From contig CAVPPB010000001.1 of assembly GCA_963707215.1 (NCBI GenBank), positions 448,001 through 512,000 of the forward strand: a DNA stretch of 64,000 bases. The letters are read 5' to 3'. Under the pieces are notes generated by a model. The model saw only the letters and a list, made by a program, of their open reading frames with translations. It was not told the DNA's origin and searched no databases. Made by a program: the position numbers and the translations under genes. Shown here piece after piece: positions 27,778-49,146 of this stretch. Every line of letters begins with the position of its first letter. Within the stretch, counting starts at the first letter, position 1. This stretch comes from an uncultured Chloroflexia bacterium (lineage in GTDB: Bacteria; Chloroflexota; Limnocylindria; Limnocylindrales; CSP1-4).

Positions 27778-28065
27778 GGATGCGGCCTCCGGGTCGGGAC
27801 GATGCCCCGAGGATAGCGCGGGTCCGGGTATGCGACCGGGCGGGCGGATCACCGTTCGTGGGCACCCGACCGGCGAGCCGCCTCGGCCCGGTCGCTGGCG
27901 CGACGCTAGGTCGCGGCGGGACCCGCGTCAATGCCTCCGGCCGTGGGAGCGAGCGGGACCACCCTGATGCCGGTGCGCCCGGGCACCGCTCCGGTCGCGG
28001 CGGCCGGTGCTAGCATCGGGCGCGGTCCCCTTCGCCCCGGCCCTGTCCGCCCCGGAGATGCCACC

Positions 28066-28719
28066 GTGACCGAACTCGACCTTCCGAAGACCCTCCACGT
28101 CTCGAGCCACCCGGCCGTCCAGCACAAGCTCGCGATCCTGCGCGACGAGGACGTCGAGCCGAAGAAGTTCCGCGAGGTCGTCCGCGAGCTGTCGTGGCTC
28201 CTGGGCTACGAGGCACTGGCCGACACCCGCGTCCGTCGGATCACCGTCCGCACGCCGCTCGAGACGACCGAGGCCCACGAGCTGGCCGACCGGATCGGCC
28301 TGGTCCCGATCCTGCGGGCCGGTCTCGGCATGGTCGACGCCATGCTGGAGCTGATGCCGACGGCCCAGGTCTGGCATCTCGGCCTCTTCCGCGACGAGCG
28401 GACCCTGCGGCCGGTCGAGTACTACAACAAGCTGCCCGATTCCGCGAGCGTCGACGTCTGCCTCATCCTCGACCCGATGCTGGCGACCGGCGGCTCCGCC
28501 ACCGCCGCCATCGAGGTCCTCAAGCGCTGGGGCGCGGTCAGGATCAAGCTGGTCAACCTCATCGCCGCCCCCGAGGGCGTCCGGGCCGTCCACGAGGCGC
28601 ACCCGGACGTCGAGATCTACAGCGCCGCTCTCGACCGGGAGCTCAACGACAAGGGCTACATCATGCCCGGCCTCGGTGACGCGGGCGACCGCCAGTTCGG
28701 GACCGGCCACTCGAGCTAG
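28066..28719 (+). CDS. upp: Uracil phosphoribosyltransferase
   Basis: VPILRAGLGM, DPMLATGGS, GYIMPGLGDAGDR. Confidence 0.97.
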   Translation: MTELDLPKTLHVSSHPAVQHKLAILRDEDVEPKKFREVVRELSWLLGYEALADTRVRRITVRTPLETTEAHELADRIGLVPILRAGLGMVDAMLELMPTAQVWHLGLFRDERTLRPVEYYNKLPDSASVDVCLILDPMLATGGSATAAIEVLKRWGAVRIKLVNLIAAPEGVRAVHEAHPDVEIYSAALDRELNDKGYIMPGLGDAGDRQFGTGHSS

Positions 28720-31767: not shown

Positions 31768-31950
31768 CGCCCCTGCTGGCCCGCCCGACGGCGACCCCGA
31801 CCCGGGCTCGGGGAAGCCCGGTGGCGGCCATCTCGCGGGCGAGGGTGACCCGTGCCACAATGCCGTGCGCTGCGCCGACGGGCCCGGCGATCACGCGGTG
31901 ACCCTCGAGACCGCAGCATGGCGGCCGGGGACCGCACTCGGGAGGCGAGC

Positions 31951-33493: not shown

Positions 33494-35122
33494 ATGACTC
33501 GCTGGGGTTCGCTCGCCGCGCTCGCTGCCGCCCAGTTCCTCATGGTGCTGGACCAGGCCGTCATGAACGTCTCGATCAGCCAGCTGGTCGAGGACTTCGA
33601 CACGACGGTCACGACGATCCAGTCGGTCATCACCCTCTACGCGCTGGTCATGGCCATGTTCATGCTGACCGGCGGCAAGATCGGCGACATCATCGGGCGG
33701 CGGCGGGCGTTCGTCGTCGGCCTTGTCATCTACGGCAGCGGGTCGGCACTCACGGCGATCGCCCCAACGGTCGGGATCCTGACGCTCGGCTGGTCGGTCC
33801 TCGAGGGGATCGGCGCTGCGCTGGTGCTCCCCGCGCTGGCAGCCCTGATCGCCGGCAACTTCCAGGGACGCGAACGGGTGACCGCCTACGCGATCATCGG
33901 TGGGGTGGCGGGCGCCGGCATCGCCGTCGGACCGATCGTCGGCGGCTGGGCGACGACCGTGCTCACCTGGCGCATCGTCTTCGCCGGCGAGGTCGTCATC
34001 GTGCTCGCCATCCTCGCCATGAGCAGGCTGGTCGCGGATGCGCCGCGAGAGGGGCGTGCCCCGAGCCTGGACGTGATCGGGGCAGCGCTGTCCGCGCTGG
34101 CCCTCGGAGCCATCGTCTATGGCGTCCTCCAGGCGAGCACCTGGGGCTGGATCACTCCGAAGGACTCCCCGGTGGAGCCGCTGGGCTTCTCGCTGACCGT
34201 CTTCGTCGTGACCGCAGGGTTCGTGCTCGGTTGGCTCTTCGTCCGTTGGGAGCGCCACCGCGAGGCGACCGGCCAGGACCCGCTCGTCCATCTGGACCTG
34301 CTTCGCATCCCGCCGCTCAGGTCGGGGCTCGTCAACCTGCTGAGCCAGAACCTCATCCTGATGGGCGTCTTCTTCACCGTTCCGCTGTACCTGCAGCTGG
34401 TGCTGGGCCTCGATGCGCTCGAGACCGGGATCAAGATGCTGCCGGTCTCGGTGACGATGTTCATCGCCTCGGCGCTCGGGTCCCGGCTGAGCCTTCGCTA
34501 CTCGGTCCGCACCATCGTCCGGGCCGGCCTGGCCGTCATCACGGTGGCCGTCCTCGTCCTCCTTGCGGTGATCGATCCCGAGCTGCGAAGTCTTGGGTTC
34601 GCGGCCGCCATGGCCCTCCTGGGGGTCGGGATGGGGCTCATCGCCTCCCAGCTGGGCAACGTCGTGCAGTCGTCGGTGGACGCCTCCGGCCGGAGCGAGG
34701 CCGGCGGCCTCCAGTACACCGGCCAGCAACTGGGCTCGTCGCTCGGCGTCGCCCTGATCGGTGCGATCGTCCTGAGCGGCCTGGCCTCCAACTTCCTGGG
34801 CAACGTCCAGAACGACGAACGGATCAGTGCCGAGGTCGCCAGCCAGGTCGCGATCGCGGTCGACGGGAGCACGGACTTCGTCTCGACCAGCCAGGTCGAG
34901 GAGGCCGCGACGGCGGCGGGCCTGGACCAGCCGACCGTCGACGCCCTCGTCGAGGACTACGCCGAGGCGCAGCTCCTGGCCCTCAAGACCGGGCTCCTGG
35001 CGTCGGCGCTCATCGCCATCGCGACGCTGCTGTTCACCCGCGCGCTGCCGAGTCGACGGCCGGGCGAGGAGGATCAGGCGAAGCCGGACGTCGCCACAGG
35101 AGCGACCGGATCGATCTCCTGA
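33494..35122 (+). CDS. MFS transporter (DHA2/EmrB-like)
   Basis: QFLMVLD, GKIGDIIGRRR, GPIVGG, ~14 TM segments. Confidence 0.92.
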   Translation: MTRWGSLAALAAAQFLMVLDQAVMNVSISQLVEDFDTTVTTIQSVITLYALVMAMFMLTGGKIGDIIGRRRAFVVGLVIYGSGSALTAIAPTVGILTLGWSVLEGIGAALVLPALAALIAGNFQGRERVTAYAIIGGVAGAGIAVGPIVGGWATTVLTWRIVFAGEVVIVLAILAMSRLVADAPREGRAPSLDVIGAALSALALGAIVYGVLQASTWGWITPKDSPVEPLGFSLTVFVVTAGFVLGWLFVRWERHREATGQDPLVHLDLLRIPPLRSGLVNLLSQNLILMGVFFTVPLYLQLVLGLDALETGIKMLPVSVTMFIASALGSRLSLRYSVRTIVRAGLAVITVAVLVLLAVIDPELRSLGFAAAMALLGVGMGLIASQLGNVVQSSVDASGRSEAGGLQYTGQQLGSSLGVALIGAIVLSGLASNFLGNVQNDERISAEVASQVAIAVDGSTDFVSTSQVEEAATAAGLDQPTVDALVEDYAEAQLLALKTGLLASALIAIATLLFTRALPSRRPGEEDQAKPDVATGATGSIS

Positions 35123-35496
35123 CGTTGCCCAGGGAGGGCCCCTGGCAGCCGGTGAGCCAGGGCCAGGAGCCAGAAGCAGACAGCGGGAGGCGACGCGCAG
35201 CTCGGATGCGAGTCGCCGGGGCACAGCGCGCGGGCTGAGCCAACGGCGAGGATCGGCGCTCGTCGTCCCCTCCTGGTTCGACCACCGCCAGGGCGAGATC
35301 CAGCGCGGCGACCACCCGCACCGACGGTCCTGTGCCGACGCGCCAAAGGGCCCTTGCCGGCGGCGCGCGAGCCGTCGTCTCATGAGGGGCGAAGGCTGGC
35401 TCCGCGGCCGATCCTCCCCGGCGCAGAGCTTCGCTGTCCGGCTCCGAGGCCGGGGCGATCAGCCGAGGGAGTCCTGGCGTCCCGGGGAGCACCTCG

Positions 35497-35706
35497 ATGA
35501 CTGCCGGCAGCACCACCACCCACCTGAGATCGAGCCGCGAGATTCGGACGGCGGTGGGCCTCACCGTGGTCGCCATGGCGGCGATCCTCGGCCTCCTCGT
35601 CGCCGGTCAGGCGGGCCTACTGCCCCGATCGCCGGCGTGGTCCGGCAGCCCGGCCGACCAATACCTGTCGCAGCAGACCGTCGGAGAGCGCCTCGCCGCG
35701 CCGTAG
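35497..35706 (+). CDS. Small single-pass membrane protein (69 aa)
   Basis: GGGGAG before ATG; hydrophobic AVGLTVVAMAAILGLLVAG. Confidence 0.55.
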   Translation: MTAGSTTTHLRSSREIRTAVGLTVVAMAAILGLLVAGQAGLLPRSPAWSGSPADQYLSQQTVGERLAAP

Positions 35707-35738
35707 GACCGCCTCACCGAGCCCGACTCAGCGCACCG

Positions 35739-36830
35739 TCACTCACCACCGGGCGTCAGCTCGACGGAACCCTTGCTGAAATCGGCGCCGACGACATCGC
35801 CCGTGATCGCATCGAGGGCGCGCTCGGCGAGGTCGGTCCGATACGCGTCGGCCGCCGGGGCAGCAGTGAGCAGGCCGGCATCGAGCATGACCGTGACCGT
35901 CTGGTCGAAGAGGACCGCGTCCATGAGGCCGACGCCATCCGGCGAAGGCCAGATCAGCGGGTTGACCTCGTTCATCTGCCAGGCCTGGTGGCTCCTCCCG
36001 GTCGCGCCGCCGGCCTGGAGCACGTAGTCGACGCAGACCGACACGTTCTCGCGGCAGAACATCCAACCGCGGAAGGCACCGGTCAGGAACCGGACGGCCA
36101 GGTCCTCGCCGTCACCCTCGGCAAGCCAGGCAGCGCGGGCGAAGATGCCGTCCTGGAGCATCGCCGTGCCCTCGCTGTTGTAGTCGATGACGTTGAGGTC
36201 CTCCGGTCGGTAGAGCTCGCCGGTGGCCGGATCGATCGTCTCGAGCACCAGGGCGTACTCGTTGTAGATCATCGCCTGGGCGACGTCGATCTCGCCGCCG
36301 AGGAAGGCGTCCATGTCGGTCTCCTGGAGGATCCTCTCGTAGTCGACGTCTGCCTCGAGGCCATACTGCCGGGCGGCAGCCGTGACCTCGTGCTCGTTGC
36401 CCGCACCCCAGAGGCCGACCTTGCGGCCCTCGAAATCCTCCGGGGAGGTGATGCCGCTGTCGGACCAGGCGACCGACAGCGTGCCGGAACGCTGGAAGAC
36501 CTGGGCGATGTTCACCAGGTCGGAGCCGCCCTCCCGCGCCTCGAGGACGCGTGGCAGCCACGAGACCGTGAATTCGGGGCCGTCCGGTCTCGAGCCAAGC
36601 TCCTGGGGAGCCACGTCAGGACCACCCGGGACGATCACCACGTCGAGCCCCTCCGCGGCCCAGTAGCCCTGCTTCAGGGCGGCGTAGTAGCCGGCGAACT
36701 GGGCCTGGGGCTGCCACTGGAGGAGGACGCGGACCGGCGTCAGCGGGCCCCCTGTCGCGGCATTCGAGCAGGCCGTGGCCGCCATGGCGATCGCCATGCC
36801 CATCGCCAGCACTCGGCGTGGAGCCATCAT
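35739..36830 (-). CDS. ABC substrate-binding lipoprotein, NMT1/THI5 family
   Basis: Lipobox ATAC, LQWQPQAQFAGYYAA, AQAMIYNE. Confidence 0.9.
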   Translation of the reverse strand: MMAPRRVLAMGMAIAMAATACSNAATGGPLTPVRVLLQWQPQAQFAGYYAALKQGYWAAEGLDVVIVPGGPDVAPQELGSRPDGPEFTVSWLPRVLEAREGGSDLVNIAQVFQRSGTLSVAWSDSGITSPEDFEGRKVGLWGAGNEHEVTAAARQYGLEADVDYERILQETDMDAFLGGEIDVAQAMIYNEYALVLETIDPATGELYRPEDLNVIDYNSEGTAMLQDGIFARAAWLAEGDGEDLAVRFLTGAFRGWMFCRENVSVCVDYVLQAGGATGRSHQAWQMNEVNPLIWPSPDGVGLMDAVLFDQTVTVMLDAGLLTAAPAADAYRTDLAERALDAITGDVVGADFSKGSVELTPGGE

Positions 36831-37717
36831 CGGGTCTTCCTGGGGCTATCCCACGCCACCGGCGCCGGGGCACCCTCGACGCCAGCCCCTGCGCCGTCGC
36901 CACGGAGCGCCGCGCGAACGGCCGTGACCAGGTCGAAGTAGTCCGGGATCGCCCTGGTGGCCTCGTTGCGGGGACGCGGCAGATCGATGTCGATCACGCG
37001 GGCGATGCGACCCGGTCGGGGGGTCATCACGGCGACCCGGGTCGACAGGAACACCGCCTCGGGAACCGAGTGGGTCACGAAGACGATGGTCGTCCCGGTC
37101 CGCTCCCAGATGCGGAGGAGCTCCTGGTTCAGCCGCTCTCGGCTCATCTCGTCGAGGGCGCCGAACGGCTCGTCCATGAGCAGGATCGCCGGCTCGAAGG
37201 CCAGGGCACGGGCGATCGCCACCCGCTGCTGCATGCCACCCGACAGCTGGTAGGGGTGGTGGCCGACGAACCCGGACAGCTCGACGAGCTCGAGCATCTC
37301 CCGTGCCCGTGCAGCCGTCCGGGCCTTGTCGTAGCCCAGGATCTCGAGCGGCAACCCGACGTTGCCCTCCACGGTCCGCCAGTCGAAGAGCACCGGGGAC
37401 TGGAAGACGATCCCGTAGTCACGGTCCAGGCGGGCGCGCTCGGCCGACTTGCCGTTGACCCGGATCGAGCCGGCGCTCGGTGCCGTCAGGTCGCCGACCA
37501 CCCGGAGCAGCGTCGACTTGCCGCAGCCGGAGGGACCGATGACCGAGACGAACTCGCCGCGCCGGATGTCAAGATCGATGTCCTCGAGCGCGCCGGTGCC
37601 GCCACCACCGGCAGGCCCGAAGCGCTTGCCGATCCCGCGGAGGCTCACGACCGCATCGTCAGGTCGGGATCGGGGCCGCCGATCCGTCTCGCCCGCGGGC
37701 CCCTCGGCCAGTGCCAT
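36827..37717 (-). CDS. ABC ATP-binding protein (TauB/SsuB-like)
   Basis: [30 protein letters not shown]. Confidence 0.93.
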   Translation of the reverse strand: MALAEGPAGETDRRPRSRPDDAVVSLRGIGKRFGPAGGGGTGALEDIDLDIRRGEFVSVIGPSGCGKSTLLRVVGDLTAPSAGSIRVNGKSAERARLDRDYGIVFQSPVLFDWRTVEGNVGLPLEILGYDKARTAARAREMLELVELSGFVGHHPYQLSGGMQQRVAIARALAFEPAILLMDEPFGALDEMSRERLNQELLRIWERTGTTIVFVTHSVPEAVFLSTRVAVMTPRPGRIARVIDIDLPRPRNEATRAIPDYFDLVTAVRAALRGDGAGAGVEGAPAPVAWDSPRKTR

Positions 37718-37735
37718 CGCCAGCCCGCCGGCCAC

Positions 37736-39067
37736 CTAGCCGGTCACCGCCCGGTCGGCGATGTCGAGGGCCGCGTCGATGACCTCGAAGCCGTCGGCCA
37801 GCTGCTCCTCGGTGATGCAGAGGGGCGGGTTCGTGTGGATCGAGTTGTTGGCGAGCATCGCGTACACGCCGTGCTCGCGGAGGTACTTCCCGATGGCCTT
37901 CATCTCATCGCTGGAGCCGTTGAACGAGGTCATCGGCGTCCACGGTTCGTGGCTGCGGACGAGATCGATGATCCCGAAGAGCCCCAGATTCCGATGGGCG
38001 CCCACCGATGGATGCTTCGCCGCCAGCCGCTCATGGTGCGCCCGCATGACGGGCCCGAGCCGGGCGGCGTTCCCGATGAGGTCGTCCTCCTCGTAGACGC
38101 CGATCGTGGCCAGGGCGGCTGCAAGGCTCACCGGATGGCTGCTGTAGGTGAGCCCGCCGTAGAACATCTTCGTCTCGAAGGCCTCGGCGATCCCATGGCG
38201 CATGGCAACGGCGCCGAGCGGCAGGTATGAGCTGGTCAGGCCCTTGGCCATCGTCATCAGGTCGGGCACGACGTCCCAGTGATCGATGGCGAACCAGCGG
38301 CCGGTCCGGCCGAATCCCGCCATCACCTCATCGGCGACCATCAGGATGCCGTAGCGGTCGCAGATCTCACGGACGCCCTGGATGTAGCCGTCGGGTGGGA
38401 TGAGGATCCCGTTGGTCCCGACGACGGTCTCGAGGAAGACCGCCGCAATCGTGTGGGGACCCTCGTAGCGGACGACGTCCTCGAGCCCCTGGAGGCTCTC
38501 CTCGACGGGTCGGGGCTCCGCCTCGCCCCATCGATGCGTGTCCGGGTAGCGGACGACCCCGACCAGACCGGGCTCGTTGGCCCAGCGGCGGGGGTCGCCG
38601 GTCAGGGTCATGGCTCCCATCGTGGCCCCGTGGTAGGCCCGGTAGCGGGCCAGCACCTTGGTCCGACCCGTGTAATGGCGAGCCAGCTTGATCGCGTTCT
38701 CGATGGCCTCGGCGCCACCGAGGGTGAAGAAGACCTTGTCCAGGTCGCCGGGCATGATCTCCGCGAGCTTGGCCCCGAGCCGTCCGCGGATCTCGGTGGC
38801 GAAGGCCGGCTGGACGTACTGGAGCTGGGTCGCCTGCGCGGTCATCGCATCGACGACCCGGCGATCGCCGTGGCCGATGTTCACCGACATGAGCTGGCTG
38901 TTGAAGTCGAGGATCCGCTGGCCCTCCGGCGTGTAGATGTAGACGCCCTCCGCGTGATCGATGGCGATCGGATCGAGCGCCCCCTGCACGGACCAGGAGA
39001 AGAAGGTGTGGGCGCGGTTGAGGGCGACGATCTCCTCGGACGTCGCCTTGCCGGTCTGCGCGGTCAT
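37736..39067 (-). CDS. Class III aminotransferase (beta-alanine:pyruvate-like)
   Basis: YHGAT, ADEVMAGFGRTG, MAKGLTS, GLTYSSHP; pyrimidine-cluster context. Confidence 0.9.
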   Translation of the reverse strand: MTAQTGKATSEEIVALNRAHTFFSWSVQGALDPIAIDHAEGVYIYTPEGQRILDFNSQLMSVNIGHGDRRVVDAMTAQATQLQYVQPAFATEIRGRLGAKLAEIMPGDLDKVFFTLGGAEAIENAIKLARHYTGRTKVLARYRAYHGATMGAMTLTGDPRRWANEPGLVGVVRYPDTHRWGEAEPRPVEESLQGLEDVVRYEGPHTIAAVFLETVVGTNGILIPPDGYIQGVREICDRYGILMVADEVMAGFGRTGRWFAIDHWDVVPDLMTMAKGLTSSYLPLGAVAMRHGIAEAFETKMFYGGLTYSSHPVSLAAALATIGVYEEDDLIGNAARLGPVMRAHHERLAAKHPSVGAHRNLGLFGIIDLVRSHEPWTPMTSFNGSSDEMKAIGKYLREHGVYAMLANNSIHTNPPLCITEEQLADGFEVIDAALDIADRAVTG

Positions 39068-39228
39068 CGGTCACCTCACGGGAGGACGGGGAGGGCCGGC
39101 GTCGCGCCGGCCCGGCGCGAACGGGCGCACGGGATCACAGGAGCGATTACACCACAAGGCGGCCGGATCGAGCGCCCGGCGAGTCGCCGAGCGAACCTCC
39201 TGACGAGGCGATCCCGGATGGGGGAAAC

Positions 39229-39259
39229 GCGGAGGCCCCTCGGTGGGAGGGGCCTCCGC
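39229..39259 (-). terminator. Intrinsic terminator downstream of the NCS1 gene
   Basis: 12-bp stem GCGGAGGCCCCT/AGGGGCCTCCGC followed by GTTTCC on the minus strand. Confidence 0.75.
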
Positions 39260-39305
39260 TGCGAGCGTCAGGTGGCCGGGCAGCCGGCCTGACAGGGGAT
39301 GGCCG

Positions 39306-40940
39306 TCAAGCCGCGGTCGGAGCAGGCTCCGGCGCCGCTTCCTCGACCTCCTGGCCCTTCTGCGGGATGAAGCGCGCGAGGATCCAGTACAGGACGAATC
39401 CGACGAGGAAGGCCACGACCCAGCTGTAGTCGTACAGGTTGAAGATGAACTCGCCGAAGGCGAGATCCCACTTGAGGAACGGCAGCACGCCGGTCTCCGG
39501 GAACGGCCCCGTGCCACCGGCGGGGGTGTAGGCGCCGCCGATGGCGAAGAAGGCGCCGACCACGAGGGCGACGACCGCTCGCCAGTTCCAGCCGGCCGCA
39601 TAGCGGTAGATGCCGCTTTGCCGGTACAGGTCGGCCAGCTTCAGGTTCCGCCTGCGGATCAGCCAGTAGTCGGCGATCAGGACGCCGGCGATCGCACCGG
39701 TCAGTCCGCCGTAGGTGCCGAGCCAGGTGAAGATGTAGATGCTCGGGTCACTGAACAGGTACCACGGCATGATCAGGATGCCGATGATGCCCGTGATGAT
39801 CCCGCCGGTCCGGAAGCTGATCTTGCTCGGCCACGCGTTCGAGAAGTCGTAGGACGGGCTCACGACGTTCGCCGCCACGTTCGTGGACAGCGTCGCCAGG
39901 GCGAACGTGAACAGCATGAACAGGACGATGGGCACGCTGTCGATCTGGGCGACGAGCTGCGTCGGGTCCCAGATCGCTTCGCCGTAGACGACCACGGTGG
40001 CCGACACGGTGAGGACGCCGATCAGGGGGAACAGGGTCATCGTCGTCGGCAGCCCGAGTGTCTGGCCGAGGGCCTGCTCGCGCTGGCTGCGCCCGAACCG
40101 GGTGAAGTCGGGCATGTTCAGCGAGAGCGTCGACCAGAAGGCGATCATGCCCATCAGCGAGATGGGGAACACCGCCCAGAAGTCAGCGCCCCAGCCCAGG
40201 GTGCCGCTCTGGCTCACGACGGGCCCGAGGCCGCCGGCCTGGATGACCATCCAGATCATCAGGATGACGAAGACCGTCACCAGGAACGGGGCTGCCAGGT
40301 TCTCGAACCGCTTCACCGCGTTCATGCCGTACAGGATGATCGCGATGTTGGCGGCCCAGAAGAGCAGGAAGCTCAGCCACATCGTCCACGGCTGCGCGGC
40401 GGCATCGCCGAAGCCGATGGAGATGGTGGCGGCATCCGTCCAGAAGTTCCCTTCTCCAAGGACCCAGTTGAAGAAGGCGGCCCCGATCCCGAACACGGCA
40501 AGGGCGCCGATCCAGGTCTGGATGCCGAACCAGATGCAGGCGATCCCGGCCCGCAGGAGGGCGGGAAGGTTGGCACCCCAGACGCCGAATGCCGCCCGAG
40601 AGACCACCGGATATGGGATCCCGTACTTCGTGCCCGCGTGGCTGATCAGGAGCATCGGGATCAGGACGATGATGTTGCCGAGGGCGATCGTGAGGATCGC
40701 CTGGACCCAGTCCATCCCGAGGGCAATCAGGCCGGCGGCCAGCGCCCAGGACGGCAGGTTGATCGACATTGCGACCCAGAGGGCCAGGTAGTTGTAGGTC
40801 GTCCACGTGCGCTTGGGCAGCGCAGCGGGCGCGAGGTCGCCGTTGTGGAGCGGCGAGCCCTCCAGTGATGCGTCCGTCGCCGGGCTCAGCTCATGACGCC
40901 CGTCGGGATGGACGATCTCCTCCATCGTTGCCGCGGTCAT
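39306..40940 (-). CDS. NCS1 nucleobase:cation symporter
   Basis: RTWTTYNYLALW, GTKYGIPYPV, WFGIQTW, NMPDFTRF, NVAAN. Confidence 0.95.
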   Translation of the reverse strand: MTAATMEEIVHPDGRHELSPATDASLEGSPLHNGDLAPAALPKRTWTTYNYLALWVAMSINLPSWALAAGLIALGMDWVQAILTIALGNIIVLIPMLLISHAGTKYGIPYPVVSRAAFGVWGANLPALLRAGIACIWFGIQTWIGALAVFGIGAAFFNWVLGEGNFWTDAATISIGFGDAAAQPWTMWLSFLLFWAANIAIILYGMNAVKRFENLAAPFLVTVFVILMIWMVIQAGGLGPVVSQSGTLGWGADFWAVFPISLMGMIAFWSTLSLNMPDFTRFGRSQREQALGQTLGLPTTMTLFPLIGVLTVSATVVVYGEAIWDPTQLVAQIDSVPIVLFMLFTFALATLSTNVAANVVSPSYDFSNAWPSKISFRTGGIITGIIGILIMPWYLFSDPSIYIFTWLGTYGGLTGAIAGVLIADYWLIRRRNLKLADLYRQSGIYRYAAGWNWRAVVALVVGAFFAIGGAYTPAGGTGPFPETGVLPFLKWDLAFGEFIFNLYDYSWVVAFLVGFVLYWILARFIPQKGQEVEEAAPEPAPTAA

Positions 40941-41291
40941 TCACTCCCTCCGTCGTGTCGTCCCCCGCGGTTGATGCCACGGACCGACCGTATGGTCGTG
41001 CTCGGATCGATCTACGCTCGGTTCCTCCTCCTGCTGCGTCCAGTGCCGGGTGCGTCGCATCGTACGGGACCGTGCAAGCGTCGCGTGAGCGATCCGTGCA
41101 CAGGCGACCCGCCGCCGATGCCGAGCCGGTCGGGCCACCCGTGGACCGGATGGACCGTCCCGCCGGGAGGCGCACGCTGCGAGACCCGGACCGCACGGGT
41201 GTACGCTTCCGTCGCTCCCGCGGGGCGGCCGAGTCGTCCGGTGGGCCGTCGATATGCAGAGAGGACCGCAGGGTCGAGGAGGGTGACCGAG

Positions 41292-42146
41292 ATGCCCCGT
41301 ATCGTTCGAGGTGCACTGCTGCAGGCGACCTGGACCGGCGACAAGGAGTCGATGATCCAGAAGCACGAGGCGGCCGCCCACGAGGCGGCAGAGCAGGGCG
41401 CCCAGGTGATGCTCTTCCAGGAGCTCTTCTACGGGCCCTACTTCTGCCAGGTCCAGGACGCCCAGTACTACGCCTACACGGAACTGATCCCGGACGGTCC
41501 GACGACGAAGCGGATGCAGGACCTCGCGAAGCAGACCGGGCATGGTCCTCATCGTGCCGATGTACGAGGAGGACTCGACCGTCGTCCGGCATCTACTACA
41601 ACACGGCGGCGGTGATCGACGCCGACGGCTCGTACCTCGGCAAGTACCGCAAGACCCACATCCCGCACGTCAAGGGCTTCTGGGAGAAGTTCTACTTCCG
41701 GCCCGGCAACCTGGGCTATCCCGGTGTTCGAGACGGCCGTCGGCAAGGTCGGCGTGTACATCTGCTACGACCGCCACTTCCCCGAGGGCGCGCGGGCGCT
41801 CGGCCTCAACGGCGCGGAGATGGTCTTCATCCCCAGCGCCACCTCGCGCGGCCTGTCGGAGTACCTCTGGCGGATCGAGCAGGTCAGCCACGCGGTGGCC
41901 AACGGCTACTTCGTGGGCACGATCAACCGGGTCGGCATCGAGGCCGAGATCGGCGACGACGACTTCTACGGCCAGAGCTACTTCTGCGACCCGCGCGGCC
42001 AGTTCATCGGCTCGGTCGGCAGCCCGTACGACGAGGAGCTGATCGTCCGCGACATGGACCTCGACGTGGTCACCCAAGTCCGCCAGACCTGGCAGTTCTA
42101 CCGCGACCGCCGGCCCGACCAGTACGACGACCTCGTCCGACCCTAG
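41292..42146 (+). CDS. Nitrilase-family N-carbamoyl-beta-alanine amidohydrolase (beta-ureidopropionase-like); 3 apparent frameshifts (~41540, ~41585, ~41722)
   Basis: Joined frames give the FQELF / YRKTHIP / ICYDRHFPE catalytic E-K-C triad, plus FWEKFYF and TINRVG. Confidence 0.88.
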
Positions 42147-42204
42147 CCCGACCCTGGGTCCGGCAGCCACCGTCCCGGCCTCGCGCCCGCACCGGAGGTA
42201 CCAG

Positions 42205-43213
42205 ATGGAATTCGGATTCACCCTCAAACCCGAGCACTCGCTCGAGCGCACACTCGCCCTGACCCGGCAGGCGGAGGCGGCCGGCTTCAGCCACGGCTGG
42301 CTGTTCGATTCGCACGTCCTCTGGCGCGACCCGTACCCGCTCCTGACGCTCATGGCCCAGGCGACGACGACGCTGCGGCTGGGGACCTGCGTCACCAACC
42401 CGGCAAGCCGCGAACCGTCCGTCACCGCCTCCACCCTGGCCGTGCTCTCGGAGCTGTCACGGTGGCCGTGTCGACCTGGGCATCGGGCGCGGGGACTCGG
42501 CCCGTCGGGTGCTCGGCAAGCCTCCGACCACGATCAAGGATCTCGAAGAGGCGGTCCACGTCATCCGGGCGCTCGTCGAGGGTCGGCCGATCGAGTTCGA
42601 GGGAACGATGCTCCAGTTCCCCTGGACGGCCGGCTGGCCGCTGCCGGTCTGGATCGCGGGCTACGGCCCGGTCGCGCTCCGCCTGACGGGACGGATCGCC
42701 GACGGGGCGATGCTCCAGATCGGCGACCCGGACCTCATCCGCTGGTTCGTCGGCCAGGTCCGCGGATCGGCGCGGGAAGCGGGTCGCGACCCAGCCTCGG
42801 TCCGGGTCATGGCGGCGGCCCCGGCCCACGTCGGCGACCTTGCCGCGGCCCGCGATCGCACCCGCTGGTTCCCGGCCCTCGTCGGCAACCACGTCGTCGA
42901 CCTCGTCAACCGCTACGAGGGCGAGCTGCCCGAGGCCCTCACCCACTATGTCCGCGGACGCGAGGGCTACGACTACCTCCATCATGCCGAGGTCGGCAGC
43001 GACAATGCGGAGTTCGTGACGGACGACATCGTCGACCGTTTCGCGATCGTCGGCGACGTCGACGCCCACGTCGCCAAGCTGCTCGAGCTGCGGGCGGCCG
43101 GGGTCGACCAGTTCAACCTCTACCTCATGAACGGAGATGAGGAGGCCCAGCTCGAGTACTACGCTAGCGAGATCATCCCTCGCTACCGAGCAGCCGCCGC
43201 CAGCGACGCCTGA
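42205..43213 (+). CDS. LLM-class (Mer-like, probably F420-dependent) oxidoreductase, TIGR03842-like; apparent frameshift ~42460
   Basis: W-x-FDSHVLW, GTCVTNP, GIGRGDS, FPALVGNHVVD, YDY-x-HH, DRFAIVG. Confidence 0.85.
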
Positions 43214-43345
43214 CCAGAGCCCTCCTCGAGCTCGCAGCGATGCGCGCGGAGGCCGATCCGCGCGGGCACGATAGCCCTTCCGTCAGGCTCGACGACGGGA
43301 CCCTTCATCGGCCAACATCGCCTTGAACCGATCGAAGGAGGATGC

Positions 43346-43537
43346 ATGGCACGGCTGTCGTTGCGTCGGGCCGACCCCTGGTGGGACGTCGAGGGTCGGG
43401 CCGTGCGCCGGGACCGCACCCATCGCCGGGTCGTGGGCGGGATCGCGTTCGCTCTGGCCATCGGAGCCTGCGGCCTCACGGCGGCGACCTGGGCCCGGCA
43501 GCTCGAGCCCCTCGTCGCGCGGCTCCTGGCCGGCTGA
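43346..43537 (+). CDS. Small membrane protein (63 aa)
   Basis: AAGGAGG 4 nt before ATG; one TM segment VVGGIAFALAIGACGLTAA. Confidence 0.65.
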   Translation: MARLSLRRADPWWDVEGRAVRRDRTHRRVVGGIAFALAIGACGLTAATWARQLEPLVARLLAG

Positions 43538-43618
43538 CAGACCCGCTCGCCCTGCGCATCAGCCACGCCGGGCGCGTCGCCGGGACCCCTATCCTCTGGG
43601 CCACACCCGGAGGCAGGC

Positions 43619-45106
43619 GTGAGCACCCCAGACCAGCCGCCCAGCATCCACGACCCGAACGCTCCCACGTTCCGCGTCCTGTCCGAGGAACAGCGCCGGC
43701 GCATCCACGACGCAGCCCTGGCCGTGCTCGAGGACCCGGGCGTCCGGATCACCACGAACGCGGCTCGTGACATCCTCCTGGGCGCCGGGGCGACGACCGG
43801 CCCGGCCGACACGGTGCGGATCCCGTCCCGCCTCGTCGCCGAGGCCCTGGCGGTCGCTCCGAGGGCCTTTGCCCTGTATGACCGCGATGGCCGGGAGCGG
43901 CTCCGGCTGGGTGAGGGTCGGGCCTACTTCGGGACGGGCGTCACGGCCCTCGCCTACGAGGACCCGGCGACCGGAGCCGTCGCCGACTTCACGCTCGACG
44001 ACGTCGCGGCGCTCGCTCGCCTGACGGACGCCCTGCCGAACCTCGACTTCATCGCCACGCCGGGGGTCGTCCGGGCCGGCCCGGACCTGCCCCAGGCGAT
44101 CGTCAACCAGCGCGAGTTCCTGGCGATGCTCACCGGGACGACCAAGCCGATCATGCCGCTCATCGAGGACGCGACCGCCCTCGCGGACATCGTCGAGATG
44201 GCGGCGATCGTCGCCGGTGGGCGCGAAGCCCTCCGCGAGCGTCCCTTCGTGGTGCCGTACCTGAACTCGGTCACCCCACTCGTCTTCAACGCGGAGACCC
44301 TCGACAAGCTCATCCTCTCCGTCGACCATGGGCTGCCGGTCGTCTGCCAGGCGGCCCCGACGCTCGGCGCGACCGGACCCGTGACCCCGGCCGGGACCGC
44401 CGTCCTGTGCGCCGCCGAGACCCTGGCTGGCCTGGTCCTGGCCCAGGCACGCCGACCCGGCGCCCCGTACATCACCGGCTCGATGCCGATGGCGATGGAC
44501 ATGCGGACCGGCGACGTGACCGGCGGCGGCGCCCCGGGTCTCCTGGTCTACCTCGCCGGGGTCGAGATGGCCCGCCACTGGGGCCTCCCGCAGGTCGGGT
44601 CCGGGGGTTCCGCCGATTCGAAGATCGCCGACGAGCAGGGAGCCCGAGAGGCGGGTATCGCGATCGTCCAGGACGTGCTCGAAGGAGTCGACCTCTCCTT
44701 CGACGTCGGCTCGCTGGAGATGGGCCTGGCGACCTCGGCCATCCAGGTCGTCATGGCCGACGAGGCGATCGAGGTCGGCCGGGGCCTGCTCCGCGGCATC
44801 CGGACGGACGACGAGGCGCTCGCCGTCGACGTCATCCGCGAGGTCGGCATCGGCGGGCACTTCCTGGCGACCCGTCACACGGCCGACCACCAGCGGGAGC
44901 TCTGGATGCCGACGCTGACGAGCTGGGAGTCCCGGCGGGCCTGGGAGGCCGACGGGTCCCGCTCGATGCGGGAACGGGCCCGCGAGCGAGCGATCGAGCT
45001 GATCGGGACCCACCGGCCGCCGGAGCTGCCGGATCCAGTGCGCGCGGCCCTCGACGAGGTCGTGGAGCGTCGTCGGGCCGTGGCGACCAGAGCAGCCAGC
45101 GCCTGA
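43619..45106 (+). CDS. Trimethylamine methyltransferase (MttB) superfamily protein, non-pyrrolysine
   Basis: IHDAALAVLEDPGV, GATGPVTPAG, AETLAGL, MDMRTG, DSKIADEQ, GGHFL-x-x-x-HT; no in-frame TAG. Confidence 0.9.
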   Translation: MSTPDQPPSIHDPNAPTFRVLSEEQRRRIHDAALAVLEDPGVRITTNAARDILLGAGATTGPADTVRIPSRLVAEALAVAPRAFALYDRDGRERLRLGEGRAYFGTGVTALAYEDPATGAVADFTLDDVAALARLTDALPNLDFIATPGVVRAGPDLPQAIVNQREFLAMLTGTTKPIMPLIEDATALADIVEMAAIVAGGREALRERPFVVPYLNSVTPLVFNAETLDKLILSVDHGLPVVCQAAPTLGATGPVTPAGTAVLCAAETLAGLVLAQARRPGAPYITGSMPMAMDMRTGDVTGGGAPGLLVYLAGVEMARHWGLPQVGSGGSADSKIADEQGAREAGIAIVQDVLEGVDLSFDVGSLEMGLATSAIQVVMADEAIEVGRGLLRGIRTDDEALAVDVIREVGIGGHFLATRHTADHQRELWMPTLTSWESRRAWEADGSRSMRERARERAIELIGTHRPPELPDPVRAALDEVVERRRAVATRAASA

Positions 45107-45225
45107 GGCTCGATCGACCGACGGCGAGGCCCCGGCGGGTCGCGCGCCGCCATGCCCGAGGCGTATCCTCGTGGCACTCGCGACCCTTGTAGCGGCCCCC
45201 GGCCGCGGCGCCCAGGAGGATCGGC

Positions 45226-46641
45226 ATGCGAACGCTCATCAAGAACGGGACGGTCGTCACGGCTGAGGGTTCATACGACGCCGACGTGCTCGTCGAGGAC
45301 GAGCGGATCGCCGCGATCCTGCGGCGATCCTCGGGAGCGGTCGAGACCGCCCTGGCGGGGCTCGTCGTCGACCAGACGATCGACGCGACCGACAAGTACG
45401 TGATCCCCGGCGGCATCGACGCCCACACCCACATGGAGCTTCCGTTCGGCGGGACCTTCGCCAAGGACACCTTCGAGACCGGGACGCGCGCCGCCGCCTT
45501 CGGCGGGACGACGAGCATCGTCGACTTCGCGGTGCAGCCCAAGGGCGGATCGCTCCGCGAGGGCCTCGACACCTGGATGGCCAAGGCCGAGGGCAACGCC
45601 GTCCTGGACTACGGCTTCCACATGATCATGAGCGACGTCCGTGACGACTCGCTGGCCGAGATGGACCAGCTGGTCGCCGAGGGTATCCCGGACTTCAAGC
45701 TGTTCACTGCCTACCCGGGCGTCTTCCTCAGCGACGACGGGGCGATCTTCCGGGCGATGCAGCAGACCGCCGGCAACGGCGGCCTGATCATGATGCACGC
45801 CGAGAACGGCCCGACCATCGACATCATCGCCAACCAGACGGCCGAGGGCGGCACGACGGACCCCATCGGCCATGGCCTGGCTCGCTACTCGATCCTCGAG
45901 GGCGAGGCCACCAACCGGGTGATCCGCCTGGCCGAGGCGGCGAACGTACCCGTGTACATCGTCCACCTCTCGTCGCGGGACGCCCTCGAGGCGGTCAAGG
46001 GAGCCCGTGACCGGGGCGCCAAGGCCTTCGCCGAGACGTGCCCCCAGTACCTCTTCCTGTCGCTCGACGACATGGGCAACGGCTTCGAGGGCGCCAAGTT
46101 CGTGTGCTCGCCGCCGCTCCGCCCGAAGGACCACCAGGAGGACCTCTGGACCGGGCTCATCAAGGACGACCTCCAGCTCGTCGGGACCGATCACTGCCCG
46201 TTCGACTTCCACGGTCAGAAGGAGCTCGGTCGGGGCGACTTCAGGAAGATCCCGAACGGCCTGCCGGGCGTCGAGGAGCGGGTCGATCTCATCCACGACG
46301 GCGGCGTGGTCGGTGGCAGGATCAGCCGTGAGCGGTGGGTCGAGGTCGTCTCGACGGCGCCGGCCCGGGTCTTCGGGATGTACCCGCAGAAGGGCGCGAT
46401 CGCGGTCGGCTCGGACGCCGACATCGTCGTCTACGACCCGAACCGACGCCACGTCCTCAGCGCGGCGACCCATCACATGGACGTCGATTACTCCTGCTAC
46501 GAGGGGCGCGAGGTCCAGGGCGGCTCGGACGTGGTGATGAGTCGGGGCACCGTGGTCGTCCGCGACGGCGAGTGGGTCGGACCGGCCGGCCACGGCCGGT
46601 TCATCAAGCGGGCACCCGCCGATTTCGTGCGGGTCTCCTGA
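45226..46641 (+). CDS. hydA: Dihydropyrimidinase
   Basis: PGGIDAHTH, GGTTSIVDF, FKLF, HAEN, ETCPQYL, TDHCPF, IPNGLPG. Confidence 0.95.
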   Translation: MRTLIKNGTVVTAEGSYDADVLVEDERIAAILRRSSGAVETALAGLVVDQTIDATDKYVIPGGIDAHTHMELPFGGTFAKDTFETGTRAAAFGGTTSIVDFAVQPKGGSLREGLDTWMAKAEGNAVLDYGFHMIMSDVRDDSLAEMDQLVAEGIPDFKLFTAYPGVFLSDDGAIFRAMQQTAGNGGLIMMHAENGPTIDIIANQTAEGGTTDPIGHGLARYSILEGEATNRVIRLAEAANVPVYIVHLSSRDALEAVKGARDRGAKAFAETCPQYLFLSLDDMGNGFEGAKFVCSPPLRPKDHQEDLWTGLIKDDLQLVGTDHCPFDFHGQKELGRGDFRKIPNGLPGVEERVDLIHDGGVVGGRISRERWVEVVSTAPARVFGMYPQKGAIAVGSDADIVVYDPNRRHVLSAATHHMDVDYSCYEGREVQGGSDVVMSRGTVVVRDGEWVGPAGHGRFIKRAPADFVRVS

Positions 46642-46663
46642 TCGACGGGGCCCGGACGCCGCC

Positions 46664-47627
46664 TTGACCGGCACCGCGTCGACGTCCTCGGGCGAGCGTG
46701 GCCCCAGCCTGCCCGGGCCGGGCGAGGTCGTCGTCCTCGACGGGGGATTGGCGACGGAGCTGGAGGCCCGCGGTCACGACCTCTCGGACCGCCTCTGGTC
46801 GGCCCGACTGCTCCGTGACGACCCCGCCGCGATCGAGGCCGTCCACGCCGGCTACTTCGGGGCGGGGGCCCGGGTCGCCACCACCGCCAGCTACCAGGCG
46901 ACGGTCGAGGGGTTCGCCGCCGTCGGGATCGCCCGCGACGAGGCGCTGGACCTGATCCGCCGGAGCGTCGATCTGGCCCGCAGGGCCCGTGACCGGGCCG
47001 TCGCCCGAGCGGTAGCCGCCGGAGACACCCGCCCCAGGCTCGTGGCCGGCTCCGTCGGGCCCGTACGGGGCGATGCTCGCCGACGGCTCCGAGTACACCG
47101 GTGCCTACGACCTGACCGAGGCCGAGCTGGTGGCCTTCCACCGGCCCCGCGTGGAGGCCCTCGTCGAGGCCGGCGCCGATCTCCTCGCCTTCGAGACGAT
47201 CCCGAGCGCAACGGAGGGCGCTGCCCTGGTCCGGCTCCTCGACGAGCTGCCCGGCGCCCGGGCCTGGCTGTCGTTCCAATGCCGCGACGGGGAGCGCACG
47301 GCCAGGGGCGAGCCGATCGAGGAGGCCGTGGCCGTGACCGCGGACCAGCCCCGGATCGTGGCCGTCGGCGTGAACTGCACGGCGCCAGGGGACATGCCGA
47401 CGCTGCTGGCGGCGGCTCGCCGGGCGACCACGCTCCCTCTCGTCGCCTATCCCAACGCCGGACGCGGCTGGGACGCCGAGAGCCGGACCTGGCTCGCCCC
47501 CGACGGCGTCCCCTTCGACCCGGCGACGGCGGCGGGCTGGCGCGAGCTCGGCGCGACCTGGCTTGGCGGCTGCTGCGGCGTCGGGCCGTCCGGGATCGCG
47601 GCCCTGGCGAGCCGGCTGGCGGCCTGA
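46664..47627 (+). CDS. mmuM: Homocysteine S-methyltransferase (MmuM-like); apparent frameshift ~47060
   Basis: LDGGLATEL, LWSA, TASYQA, GSVGPYGA-x-LADGSEY, FETIP, GVNC, YPNAG, GGCC. Confidence 0.88.
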
Positions 47628-47658
47628 CCGAGAGCGTCGATGGACCCGGTCGGGTCAC

Positions 47659-48750
47659 TCAGGCCCCGCCGCCTCCGAGGACGACCGGCAGCCGTCGAGC
47701 CCCCCAGGTACCGGGCTCGGCCTCGAAGACGCCGGCGATCCGGGTCCCGCACCTGCCGCAGCGGCCCTCGGCGTCCAGGCCCCAGTGCCCGAGGTCGTAC
47801 CAATCGCGCTCGATGAGCAACGCGTCGCAGGTCGGGCATCGCGTGCTCTGGCCATCGCGATCGTGGGTATTGCCGGTGTAGGCATAGAGGATGCCGTTGG
47901 CCCGGGCGATCTCGCGGGCACGCCGCAGGGTCGACGGTTGCGTCGGCGGCGTGTCGAGCATCCGGAAGTCGGGATGGAACGCGGTGAAATGGACCGGCAC
48001 GTCGGGCCCCAGCTCGTCGACGATCCAGCGCGTCATCGCGTCGGTCTCGGCCTCGTCGTCGTTCCAGCCGGGGATGACCAGGTTCGTGATCTCGACCCAG
48101 ACATCGGTCTCCCGGCAGAGGTAGCGGAGGGTATCCCTGACCGGCCCGAGATGGCCTGCGGTGAGATCGGCGTAGAAGCGCTCGCTGAAGCCCTTGAGGT
48201 CGACGTTGGCAGCGTCGATGTGCTGGTACAGCTCGGCTCGCGGCTCGGGGTCGATGTAGCCGGCCGTGACCGCCACGGCCTTGAGCCCTCGTTCGCGGCA
48301 GGCATCGGCCACGTCGATCGCGTACTCCATGAAGACGACCGGGTCGTTGTAGGTGAAGGCGACGCTCCGGCAGCCGAGCCGGACCGCCGTCTCGGCGATC
48401 AGCTCCGGGGAGGCCGCGTCGGCGAGGGTATCCAGCTGGCGGCTCTTGCTGATGTCCCAGTTCTGGCAGTAGCGGCAGGCCAGGTTGCAGCCGGCCGTGC
48501 CGAAGGAGAGGACCGACGTACCCGGCAGGAAGTGGTCGAGTGGCTTCTTCTCGATCGGGTCGACGCAGAAGCCCGACGAGCGGCCGTAGGTCGTCAGAAC
48601 GATCGCATCGCCGAAGCGGGCCCGGACGAAGCACATGCCCCGCTGACCCTCGCCGAGGCGGCAGTGCCTGGGACAGACGTCGCATTGGACGCGACCGTCG
48701 TCGAGGCGATGCCAGTGGCGGGTGGGGTGGGTCGTCCCGAGCTCCATCAT
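47659..48750 (-). CDS. amrS: AmmeMemoRadiSam system radical SAM enzyme
   Basis: CDVCPRHC, DPIEKKPL, GCNLACRYCQNWDIS, AFTYNDP, FHPDFRM, C-terminal CxxC pairs. Confidence 0.93.
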   Translation of the reverse strand: MMELGTTHPTRHWHRLDDGRVQCDVCPRHCRLGEGQRGMCFVRARFGDAIVLTTYGRSSGFCVDPIEKKPLDHFLPGTSVLSFGTAGCNLACRYCQNWDISKSRQLDTLADAASPELIAETAVRLGCRSVAFTYNDPVVFMEYAIDVADACRERGLKAVAVTAGYIDPEPRAELYQHIDAANVDLKGFSERFYADLTAGHLGPVRDTLRYLCRETDVWVEITNLVIPGWNDDEAETDAMTRWIVDELGPDVPVHFTAFHPDFRMLDTPPTQPSTLRRAREIARANGILYAYTGNTHDRDGQSTRCPTCDALLIERDWYDLGHWGLDAEGRCGRCGTRIAGVFEAEPGTWGARRLPVVLGGGGA

Positions 48751-48837
48751 CGGTGGCCTTCCGGGTCCATCATGCTCCTGTCCGGCCCGCCGGTCATCGG
48801 CCGAGCGGACCCGATCCGCAGCCCGGAGGCAGCTTCG

Positions 48838-49146
48838 ATGCACGTCACCCTGGTGTCCGTCCACGTCAAGCCCGAGCACCTCGACGAGTACCTCGACGAG
48901 CTGCGGGCGAACCACGAGGCGTCGGTCCGCGAGCCCGGCAACCTCCGCTTCGACGTCCTGCGCTCGCCCGAGGACCCGACCAGGTTCCTGCTTTACGAGG
49001 CCTACATGGACGCCGACTCGGCCGCGGCCCACAAGGAGACGGCTCACTACCTCCGCTTCCGGGACACGGTCGCCGACTGGCAGGTCGAGCCGCGGACCGG
49101 CGTCCGCTGGGACGGGCTCTACCCGGAGGTCGGGGCCGGATCGTGA
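48838..49146 (+). CDS. ABM-family protein (LsrG-like)
   Basis: SVREPGNLRFDVL...RFLLYEAY...HKETAHY. Confidence 0.88.
   Translation: MHVTLVSVHVKPEHLDEYLDELRANHEASVREPGNLRFDVLRSPEDPTRFLLYEAYMDADSAAAHKETAHYLRFRDTVADWQVEPRTGVRWDGLYPEVGAGS

Follow-up and report, generated by a model that had tools for sequence, protein, structure and literature searches.

A TIGR03842 luciferase-like protein as candidate F420H2-dependent uracil/thymine reductase in pyrimidine catabolic gene clusters

Introduction

How does a bacterium that carries genes for the later steps of reductive pyrimidine breakdown, with no recognisable dihydropyrimidine dehydrogenase beside them, carry out the first step? This question is raised by a gene cluster at positions 35739-47627 of a stretch of 64,000 nucleotides (the window) from an uncultured Chloroflexia bacterium, whose genome (GCA_963707215.1, here G000) comprises 3.26 Mb in 5 contigs, with about 71% G+C and a completeness score of 84.8%. 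The window corresponds to C1:448001-512000 of G000, and cluster coordinates are given as window positions. In the Pyd pathway, which degrades pyrimidines, step 1 is the reduction of uracil or thymine to the 5,6-dihydro form by PydA or PreT-PreA (or the variant PydAc), iron-sulfur (Fe-S) flavoproteins. An earlier note, made from the DNA letters alone, listed here an NCS1 permease, an NMT1/THI5-type binding protein, an ATPase, a dihydropyrimidinase, a nitrilase, an aminotransferase and a luciferase-like (LLM) oxidoreductase, all of which are present, and proposed that the LLM is an alternative, probably F420H2-dependent, uracil/thymine reductase. Given the conserved context of its family, TIGR03842, in five phyla and its co-occurrence with F420 biosynthesis, we consider it probable that the LLM is such a reductase and thus the missing first Pyd enzyme, not homologous to PydA or PreTA. 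While the comparative data across five phyla speak for the proposal, coexisting PreA proteins, a PreA-like protein, the absence of any match to cofG and cofH and several frameshifts speak against it, and these are weighed below.

An orphan LLM protein among pyrimidine genes

Gene calls, made from stop-to-stop frames, a frame plot of G+C at third codon positions (GC3) and scans with Pfam and NCBIfam families, resolve the cluster into two divergent gene sets, with four genes on the minus strand and five on the plus strand. The LLM gene (42205-43213, plus strand) starts 58 bases behind the nitrilase gene, directly downstream of it as the earlier note had it. A surplus base splits its frame, and the N-terminal and C-terminal fragments score 84.5 and 326.8 bits on TIGR03842 (F420_CPS_4043); the C-terminal fragment alone exceeds the cut-off of 295.45, which confirms the family assignment on the model that the earlier note had named as the check. 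An intact orthologue, P0002, which is 87-89% identical to the window protein, reaches 435.3 bits. The closest proteins of solved structure are all F420 enzymes, with Mer the best match at E 1e-34, while flavin mononucleotide (FMN)-dependent LLMs match at E 1e-6 or worse, which suggests that the protein is a putative F420 enzyme rather than an FMN-binding one. TIGR03842 is a populous family (of 8000 candidates scored, 7885 proteins match at E<=1e-20), yet an orphan one, annotated by NCBI only as 'TIGR03842 family LLM class F420-dependent oxidoreductase'.

The LLM is accompanied by candidates for steps 2-4 of the Pyd pathway, although they are not equally well defined. The dihydropyrimidinase/D-hydantoinase (PydB) gene (45226-46641, plus strand) is intact and encodes 471 amino acids that score 560.5 bits on TIGR02033, well over the cut-off of 393.25. 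The nitrilase-superfamily N-carbamoyl amidase gene (41292-42146, plus strand), delimited by frames, GC3 plot and tblastn with the intact orthologue of locus L020, is a candidate beta-ureidopropionase (PydC). Its C-terminal fragment gives 112.7 bits on TIGR03381 (cut-off 410), and the nearest model of an intact orthologue is N-carbamoylputrescine amidase, at 267 bits against 410; in the NCBIfam scan no specific beta-ureidopropionase model matched, and every equivalog cut-off was missed. The class III aminotransferase (37736-39067, minus strand; PF00202 294.5 bits) matches NF004718 at 534.9 bits, a subfamily-level match, and is a candidate PydD-like beta-alanine/beta-aminoisobutyrate aminotransferase. 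An NCS1 nucleobase:cation symporter of 544 amino acids (39306-40940, minus strand; PF02133 392.5 bits; TIGR00800 388.8 bits against a cut-off of 353.1) provides a candidate importer, while no semialdehyde dehydrogenase gene was found in the window. Nor does the window hold any match to PreA or PreT, all matches in the genome lying outside C1:448001-512000, in keeping with the earlier observation that the cluster lacks an Fe-S flavoprotein dihydropyrimidine dehydrogenase.

The LLM travels with dihydropyrimidinase

If the LLM takes part in pyrimidine breakdown, its neighbourhood should recur. In a sample of 401 Chloroflexota genomes, TIGR03842 scores over its cut-off in 62, namely G000 and 61 foreign genomes. 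For 40 of the 61 foreign loci, spanning families and with long contigs favoured, the flanking 9.5 kb on either side were fetched and searched with the window proteins; a set of 80 named loci covers Chloroflexota, Acidobacteriota (Terriglobia and others) and one Binatus, and many of the misses in it are short contigs. Dihydropyrimidinase lies within 10 kb of the LLM at 37/40 phylum loci and 64/80 named loci, nitrilase at 28/40 and 58/80, aminotransferase at 24/40 and 25/80, and NCS1 at 9/40 and 28/80, the latter mostly in Acidobacteriota, while a PreA-like gene is near it at none of the 40 and none of the 80. LLM and dihydropyrimidinase are linked in this way in five phyla. At the level of whole genomes, cross-tabulated by hand for the same 401, a dihydropyrimidinase (E<=1e-100) is present in 61/62 LLM-positive genomes (the exception is G347) versus 85/339 LLM-negative ones. 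Locus L037, from family f18, combines NCS1, LLM, nitrilase, dihydropyrimidinase, a CoA-acylating methylmalonate-semialdehyde dehydrogenase (TIGR01722, 625.8 bits) and aminotransferase; with the LLM as step 1, these genes would cover the Pyd pathway from end to end.

The association extends to replicons of Streptomyces and Leisingera. On a replicon of Streptomyces sp. BHT-5-2, the genes for nitrilase, dihydropyrimidinase and LLM are consecutive. A plasmid of Leisingera caerulea (NZ_CP081074.1, 155760-171227; L150, L152) carries two divergent operons. The first reads cofG-cofH-cofD-cofC-cofE-npdG-TIGR03842, with the LLM (506 bits) as its last gene. The second, divergent next to cofG, encodes PntA, PntB, the omega-aminotransferase AptA (750 bits), an M20 carbamoylase (TIGR01879), a dihydropyrimidinase (615 bits) and NCS1, and is predicted to be a Pyd pathway with a non-homologous PydC of different fold and no PydA. 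Here, the gene content amounts to a complete putative route from NADH through NADPH and F420H2 to the LLM, beside the pyrimidine genes. The plasmid is a self-contained island of F420 and pyrimidine-catabolism genes in a cultivable marine bacterium. On a plasmid of Paracoccus alcaliphilus, the LLM likewise ends a cofG-cofH-cofD-cofC-cofE-npdG operon.

Co-occurrence with F420 biosynthesis

An F420-dependent enzyme requires a host that makes or obtains the cofactor. In the Chloroflexota sample, cofD is present in 61/62 LLM-positive genomes (the exception is G376) versus 196/339 LLM-negative ones, and in 257/401 overall. Among 161 Acidobacteriota genomes, 12 have cofD and 6 have the LLM, and each of these 6 belongs to the 12; one of the 6 was a centre chosen for having the LLM, and kin in this set are not independent. 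The two can also lie close together, with cofD 1.4 kb from the LLM in one Chloroflexota genome (G127) and 10-14 kb away in seven genomes of family f3. In G000, the genes cofD, cofC and cofE are located at C1:403442-405861, about 43 kb upstream of the window, and within the family to which the window belongs cofD is found in 22/23 genomes. The presence of F420 genes elsewhere in the genome, which the earlier note had asked to be checked, is therefore borne out for cofC, cofD and cofE, and not for cofG and cofH. Two further LLM paralogues flank the cofD-cofC-cofE genes of G000, at C1:401384-401686 and C1:406007-406501.

Distribution of dihydropyrimidine dehydrogenase

The counterpart expectation is that genomes with LLM clusters should manage without PreA. 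In G000, which is 84.8% complete, a profile search gave no match to PreA or PreT above the cut-off. Among the LLM-positive Chloroflexota genomes, 54/62 are without PreA (E<=1e-60), and PreA over cut-off was likewise not found outside that sample in any of five LLM-positive genomes (four Acidobacteriota and one Ardenticatenaceae), nor in any of five further LLM-positive Acidobacteriota. Over the whole sample PreA exceeds its cut-off in 11/401 genomes, of which 8 are LLM-positive and all 8 belong to the family of the window; their PreA matches lie in open frames of 885-1426 amino acids, much longer than PreA alone. One of these genomes, G365, allows a direct comparison. Its locus L143 is canonical, with methylmalonate-semialdehyde dehydrogenase (TIGR01722), PreA-containing dehydrogenase, dihydropyrimidinase and nitrilase divergent from aminotransferase and NCS1, while its locus L022 is an LLM cluster of the same build. 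In terms of gene order, this pair suggests an in-situ replacement of the dehydrogenase by the LLM. The dihydropyrimidinases of the two clusters are 76% (LLM cluster) and 73% (dehydrogenase cluster) identical to that of the window.

Proposed pathway and its implications

In the proposed scheme, uracil or thymine would be imported by the NCS1 permease, or by the NMT1-type ATP-binding cassette (ABC) system in relatives. The LLM, a metal-free TIM-barrel, would then reduce the pyrimidine, whose C6 would receive a hydride from C5 of F420H2 and whose C5 would afterwards be protonated. Dihydropyrimidinase would open the reduced ring, the nitrilase-type carbamoylase would yield beta-alanine or beta-aminoisobutyrate with NH3 and CO2, and the class III aminotransferase would convert these products to malonate or methylmalonate semialdehyde. 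What the data establish is which genes are present, the family of the LLM, its conserved neighbourhood and its co-occurrence with genes for the F420 tail; the substrate of the LLM, the direction of its reaction and the hydride mechanism are what we infer. That TIGR03842 constitutes a new, non-homologous class of dihydropyrimidine dehydrogenase, one that uses F420H2 and no iron-sulfur clusters, is on balance likely.

If the proposal is true, an orphan family would gain a function, and step 1 of the most widespread pyrimidine degradation pathway would have a fourth, unrelated solution, in the form of an Fe-S-free enzyme that would plausibly be advantageous where oxygen is present or iron is scarce. 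For Chloroflexota, Acidobacteriota and Alphaproteobacteria, this would be the first catabolic role assigned to F420, and the cofactor would gain a concrete, assayable role outside Actinobacteria. It would also explain why some Alphaproteobacteria have a complete cofGHDCE-npdG operon with this single LLM gene at its end, the cofactor system being kept to feed pyrimidine breakdown. Furthermore, annotation pipelines would have to be corrected where they label the Pyd pathway of soil Chloroflexota and Acidobacteriota 'incomplete'.

Evidence against the proposal and alternative explanations

Several observations weigh against the LLM as uracil/thymine reductase. The partner enzyme does not fix the substrate by name, since TIGR02033 also matches the hydantoinase HyuA of Escherichia coli, used as a control, which belongs to the reductive uric-acid route (PMC12507026). 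Dihydropyrimidinase is missing within 10 kb of the LLM at 3/40 loci (L018, L035, L052), and none lies on the Paracoccus alcaliphilus plasmid, where the plasmid only was examined. Conversely, 85 LLM-negative genomes have a TIGR02033 match and only 3 of these have PreA. At four such loci inspected (L138-L141), from lower-GC Chloroflexota without LLM and PreA (G043, G258, G076, G242), the TIGR02033 match is 39-43% identical to the dihydropyrimidinase of the window and has no nitrilase or NCS1 near it, and these proteins probably have a different, hydantoinase-type function. The cofactor supply of G000 appears incomplete: cofG and cofH were not found in this 84.8% complete genome, Fno is not over cut-off (21.8 bits), and all 16 matches to the Fgd model fall below its cut-off of 420, the best reaching 204.7 bits at C2:271181. 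Across the family, 31 genomes representing 30 genera gave no cofH either; these bacteria may take up Fo from outside and build the F420 tail on this imported deazaflavin, or use an unknown Fo synthase. In addition, the LLM and nitrilase genes are frameshifted in the G000 assembly. The anticorrelation of LLM and PreA that the earlier note expected is only a loose one: 54 of the 62 LLM-positive genomes are without PreA, but in the own family all eight genomes with a true PreA-containing dehydrogenase (G079, G221, G245, G253, G301, G349, G365, G397) carry the LLM too; the two are thus not mutually exclusive and may differ in substrate. Finally, although no preT or preA exceeds its cut-off, G000 does encode a 380-residue PreA-like FMN-domain protein (C1:828296-829342; L001 1501-2643) that reaches 304-306 bits against a cut-off of 335, and its orthologues adjoin pyrimidine genes in two relatives: in G349 (L142 8957-10084; 82% identical) NCS1, nitrilase and dihydropyrimidinase, and in G301 dihydropyrimidinase.

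What else could the LLM, or this PreA-like protein, be doing? One alternative keeps the chemistry and changes the ring, so that the cluster would degrade, and the LLM reduce, some cyclic ureide other than uracil or thymine, for instance a hydantoin or dihydropyrimidine bearing substituents, or a ring derived from a purine, as in the reductive uric-acid route. The breadth of TIGR02033, the position of the nitrilase below every equivalog cut-off and the fact that relatives keep the LLM cluster alongside a true dihydropyrimidine dehydrogenase, as two substrates would explain, are all consistent with it, as is an F420-type luciferase-family 'yanthine' reductase proposed for Chloroflexota SsnA clusters in the available part of one paper (PMC12507026). 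A uricolytic (SsnA) cluster was considered, and the genes between LLM and dihydropyrimidinase in relatives, which vary, showed no SsnA- or Xdh-type functions; no SsnA, XdhD or YgeW-type gene stands among the window neighbours or in the scanned gaps of relatives. The clusters do contain beta-alanine-type aminotransferases and methylmalonate-semialdehyde dehydrogenase, both of which act specifically on uracil- and thymine-derived products, and the close relationship of the two G365 dihydropyrimidinases argues in the same direction. We therefore hold a different ureide to be unlikely. The second alternative, that the PreA-like protein is the uracil reductase of G000, with the LLM in some accessory or unrelated redox function, draws on its 306 bits on the PreA model, the orthologues beside pyrimidine genes described above and the existence of a ferredoxin-dependent PydA variant without the FAD domain, according to the portion of the PydAc paper that was available (PMC7332683). 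The protein covers positions 1-329 of 422 of the PreA model, and its DHO_dh domain is accompanied by neither a ferredoxin nor an FAD domain; it thus lacks both ferredoxin domains that PydAc keeps and has no evident electron donor, the Fer4_20 matches of G000 lying in other proteins and none near it. In G000 its gene is about 316 kb from the cluster, among unrelated neighbours, and besides G000 such an FMN-only protein occurs in just 6/401 genomes, all of the own family, and so cannot explain LLM clusters in general; with 54 genomes lacking any PreA-family match at E<=1e-60, LLM clusters evidently work without it. As a rival for G000 we regard it as quite improbable. The 375-380-residue PreA-like protein may, in its own right, be another variant of dihydropyrimidine dehydrogenase.

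A third alternative gives the LLM a late step, the F420H2-dependent reduction of malonate/methylmalonate semialdehyde (as an analogue of PydE), or makes it another carbonyl reductase. The PDB matches include the F420 LLM alcohol/ketone oxidoreductases Adf, Fgd and hydroxymycolic acid dehydrogenase, and Yin and colleagues reportedly described, in 2019, an extended Pyd pathway with a semialdehyde reductase. The LLM tracks dihydropyrimidinase more tightly than aminotransferase at both sets of loci, several clusters already have a semialdehyde dehydrogenase, and the pathway would be left without a first step in the 54 genomes lacking PreA. Such a late role is accordingly very improbable.

Frame breaks and the state of the cluster in this genome

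Whatever the family does elsewhere, does the cluster function in G000? In the nitrilase gene, three +1 insertions (at about 41541, 41575-41586 and 41719) cause three frame changes within 180 bases, after which the first frame is regained. The LLM gene, already spoken of as frameshift-corrected in the earlier note, contains a single extra base, at 42460, and loses no residue: compared with P0002, residues 1-85 are 87% identical and end at 42459, and residues 86-333 are 89% identical and restart at 42461. A fifth surplus base lies near 47063 in the homocysteine S-methyltransferase gene. In the same-genus genome G425 (86-88% nucleotide identity), the LLM and nitrilase genes are both read without a change of frame, and the LLM of every one of the 61 foreign over-cut-off genomes is uninterrupted, with no internal stops. 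In addition, the ABC permease gene that lies between the ATPase and binding-protein genes in relatives (L020 1654-2529, L023 3418-4296) is missing from the window, where the two genes overlap by 4 bases (36827-36830); G000 has no orthologue of the L020 permease, the best match in the genome being 36% identical and on C3.

The cluster may be decaying in G000, or the assembly may be wrong at the insertion sites. Decay, meaning real frameshifts and a deleted permease in a remnant that is non-functional here, would fit the concentration of all five +1 insertions in three genes of about 2.9 kb in total, the clean absence of the permease, the MttB gene inserted between LLM and dihydropyrimidinase and the intact genes of G425. 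It would also fit the frames elsewhere, since no break was seen in about 21 further G000 genes when set against those of relatives, or in about 17 genes of the window that Pfam matches over their full length. For the former comparison, 170 open reading frames of relatives served as queries and matched 22 distinct G000 genes at >=55% identity, 21 of which are in one frame while the LLM is split; the nitrilase was missed by the script, and the sample is small and imperfect. On the other hand, all five events are single-base insertions with no residue loss, stop codons or extra substitutions beyond them, and the broken genes keep a GC3 of at least 0.9 and 85-90% identity to their orthologues. Insertions without further decay look like an assembly error or a very recent event, and the source is a 5-contig assembly of only 84.8% completeness. 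Among public sequencing runs, none carries this strain or contains more than 18% of the sampled words of 41200-43300, contigs of 4 public runs at 85% likeness are relatives that lack the extra bases at about 41575-41582 and 41719, and no near-identical contig covers 42460 in the 4 runs compared. Taken together, we hold a decaying remnant to be possible, though less likely than not.

Relation to known enzymes

The LLM and PydA would share a reaction and a position, since both lie beside dihydropyrimidinase, carbamoylase, aminotransferase and NCS1 (L143 compared with L022), yet the proteins have no homology. PydA is built on a dihydroorotate dehydrogenase-like FMN barrel that carries four [4Fe-4S] clusters and has either an FAD/NAD(P)H module or ferredoxin as its donor, in contrast to the single luciferase-like barrel of about 335 residues, which has no Fe-S motif and tracks F420 biosynthesis. 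The closest solved relative is Mer (PDB 1z69, 1f07, 8qpm), which matches over the full length and belongs to the same fold family; hydride transfer from F420H2 is presumed to be common to both. The LLM differs in falling below both Mer cut-offs (for P0002, 147.9 against 348.7 bits and 159.4 against 276 bits on the TIGR03555 and NF002619 pair), in its bacterial host without methanopterin context and in its pyrimidine-catabolic neighbours. RutA, from the same superfamily (PF00296), likewise acts directly on uracil. It opens the ring with FMNH2 and O2 and requires a flavin reductase. The RutA model is absent from the NCBIfam matches of the LLM fragments (E<=1e-5) and of P0002 (E<=1e-40), and no RutB-G genes are found near the LLM.

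In chemistry, a parallel is LxmJ, the F420H2-dependent luciferase-like hydride transferase of lexapeptide biosynthesis that converts dehydroalanine to D-Ala, as described in the accessible part of a 2021 review on F420 (PMC8498797). Here, a hydride is added to a C=C bond in conjugation with an amide carbonyl, and reduction of uracil at C5=C6 would need chemistry of this type, although the substrate is a peptide and the setting is secondary metabolism in Streptomyces. A second case is SSGG-03002 (NpsU) of the mureidomycin and napsamycin pathways, a putative F420/FMN oxidoreductase that, in the part of the report available, is genetically required for C5-C6 reduction of the mureidomycin uracil ring; its in vitro assay failed, which counts against the proposal made here, and it acts on a uridyl-peptide antibiotic (PMC10714638). 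The nearest published idea is the 'yanthine reductase' mentioned above, put forward in 2025 from gene neighbourhoods only. The sections of that paper at hand describe a putative F420 luciferase-family enzyme of Chloroflexota uricolytic clusters that would replace a PydA-like reductase to dearomatise a uracil-type ring, hence in the same phylum; the difference lies in its SsnA/XdhD clusters and purine-derived substrate, none of those genes being seen here (PMC12507026). In the accessible text of the 2021 review, no F420-dependent enzyme outside Actinobacteria is said to have been studied experimentally and the word uracil does not appear (PMC8498797), and the part of the PydAc paper that was available makes no mention of F420 or luciferase (PMC7332683). 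In a search of the open literature, which could miss subscription papers, neither TIGR03842 nor F420 was connected with the Pyd pathway by any paper found.

Other genes of the locus

The minus-strand set ends with two transporter genes. An ABC transporter ATPase of 302 amino acids (36827-37735; PF00005 112 bits) is followed by an NMT1/THI5-like ABC substrate-binding protein of 363 amino acids (35739-36830; PF09084 95 bits), homologues of which adjoin the LLM cluster in 16/80 named loci. On the plus strand, an MttB-superfamily methyltransferase gene (43619-45106; PF06253 317.6 bits; TIGR02369 353.5 bits, under the cut-off of 525) separates the LLM from the dihydropyrimidinase. Its frame is uninterrupted, with no in-frame stop, and it is therefore not the pyrrolysine form; no corrinoid protein gene was seen near it. 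The cluster closes with an MmuM-like homocysteine S-methyltransferase gene (46664-47627), matched by PF02574 in two frames (profile positions 1-101 and 105-282), whose C-terminal fragment scores 207.8 bits on NF007020, below the whole-protein cut-off of 215. Both methyltransferases, neither of which the earlier note lists, were considered as core parts of the cluster and rejected, being absent from nearly all related loci: MttB is near the LLM at 0/40 phylum loci and 1/80 named loci, there at 27% identity, and the homocysteine methyltransferase at 1/40 phylum loci, and the latter follows the dihydropyrimidinase only in L023, L065 and L068. The MttB gene is an insertion specific to G000, and the homocysteine methyltransferase is an occasional neighbour. 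An Rfam scan of 34000-49000 gave no match at E<=0.1, and a promoter and terminator scan of 40800-47900 found none.

Outside the cluster, a uracil phosphoribosyltransferase gene (27910-28719, plus strand; PF14681 256 bits) lies 7 kb upstream, and a uracil salvage gene is thus close to the putative uracil catabolism genes in the window. A DUF2252 protein is encoded at 31852-33408 on the plus strand, and a radical SAM protein of 503 amino acids (47659-49170, minus strand) is convergent with the end of the cluster.

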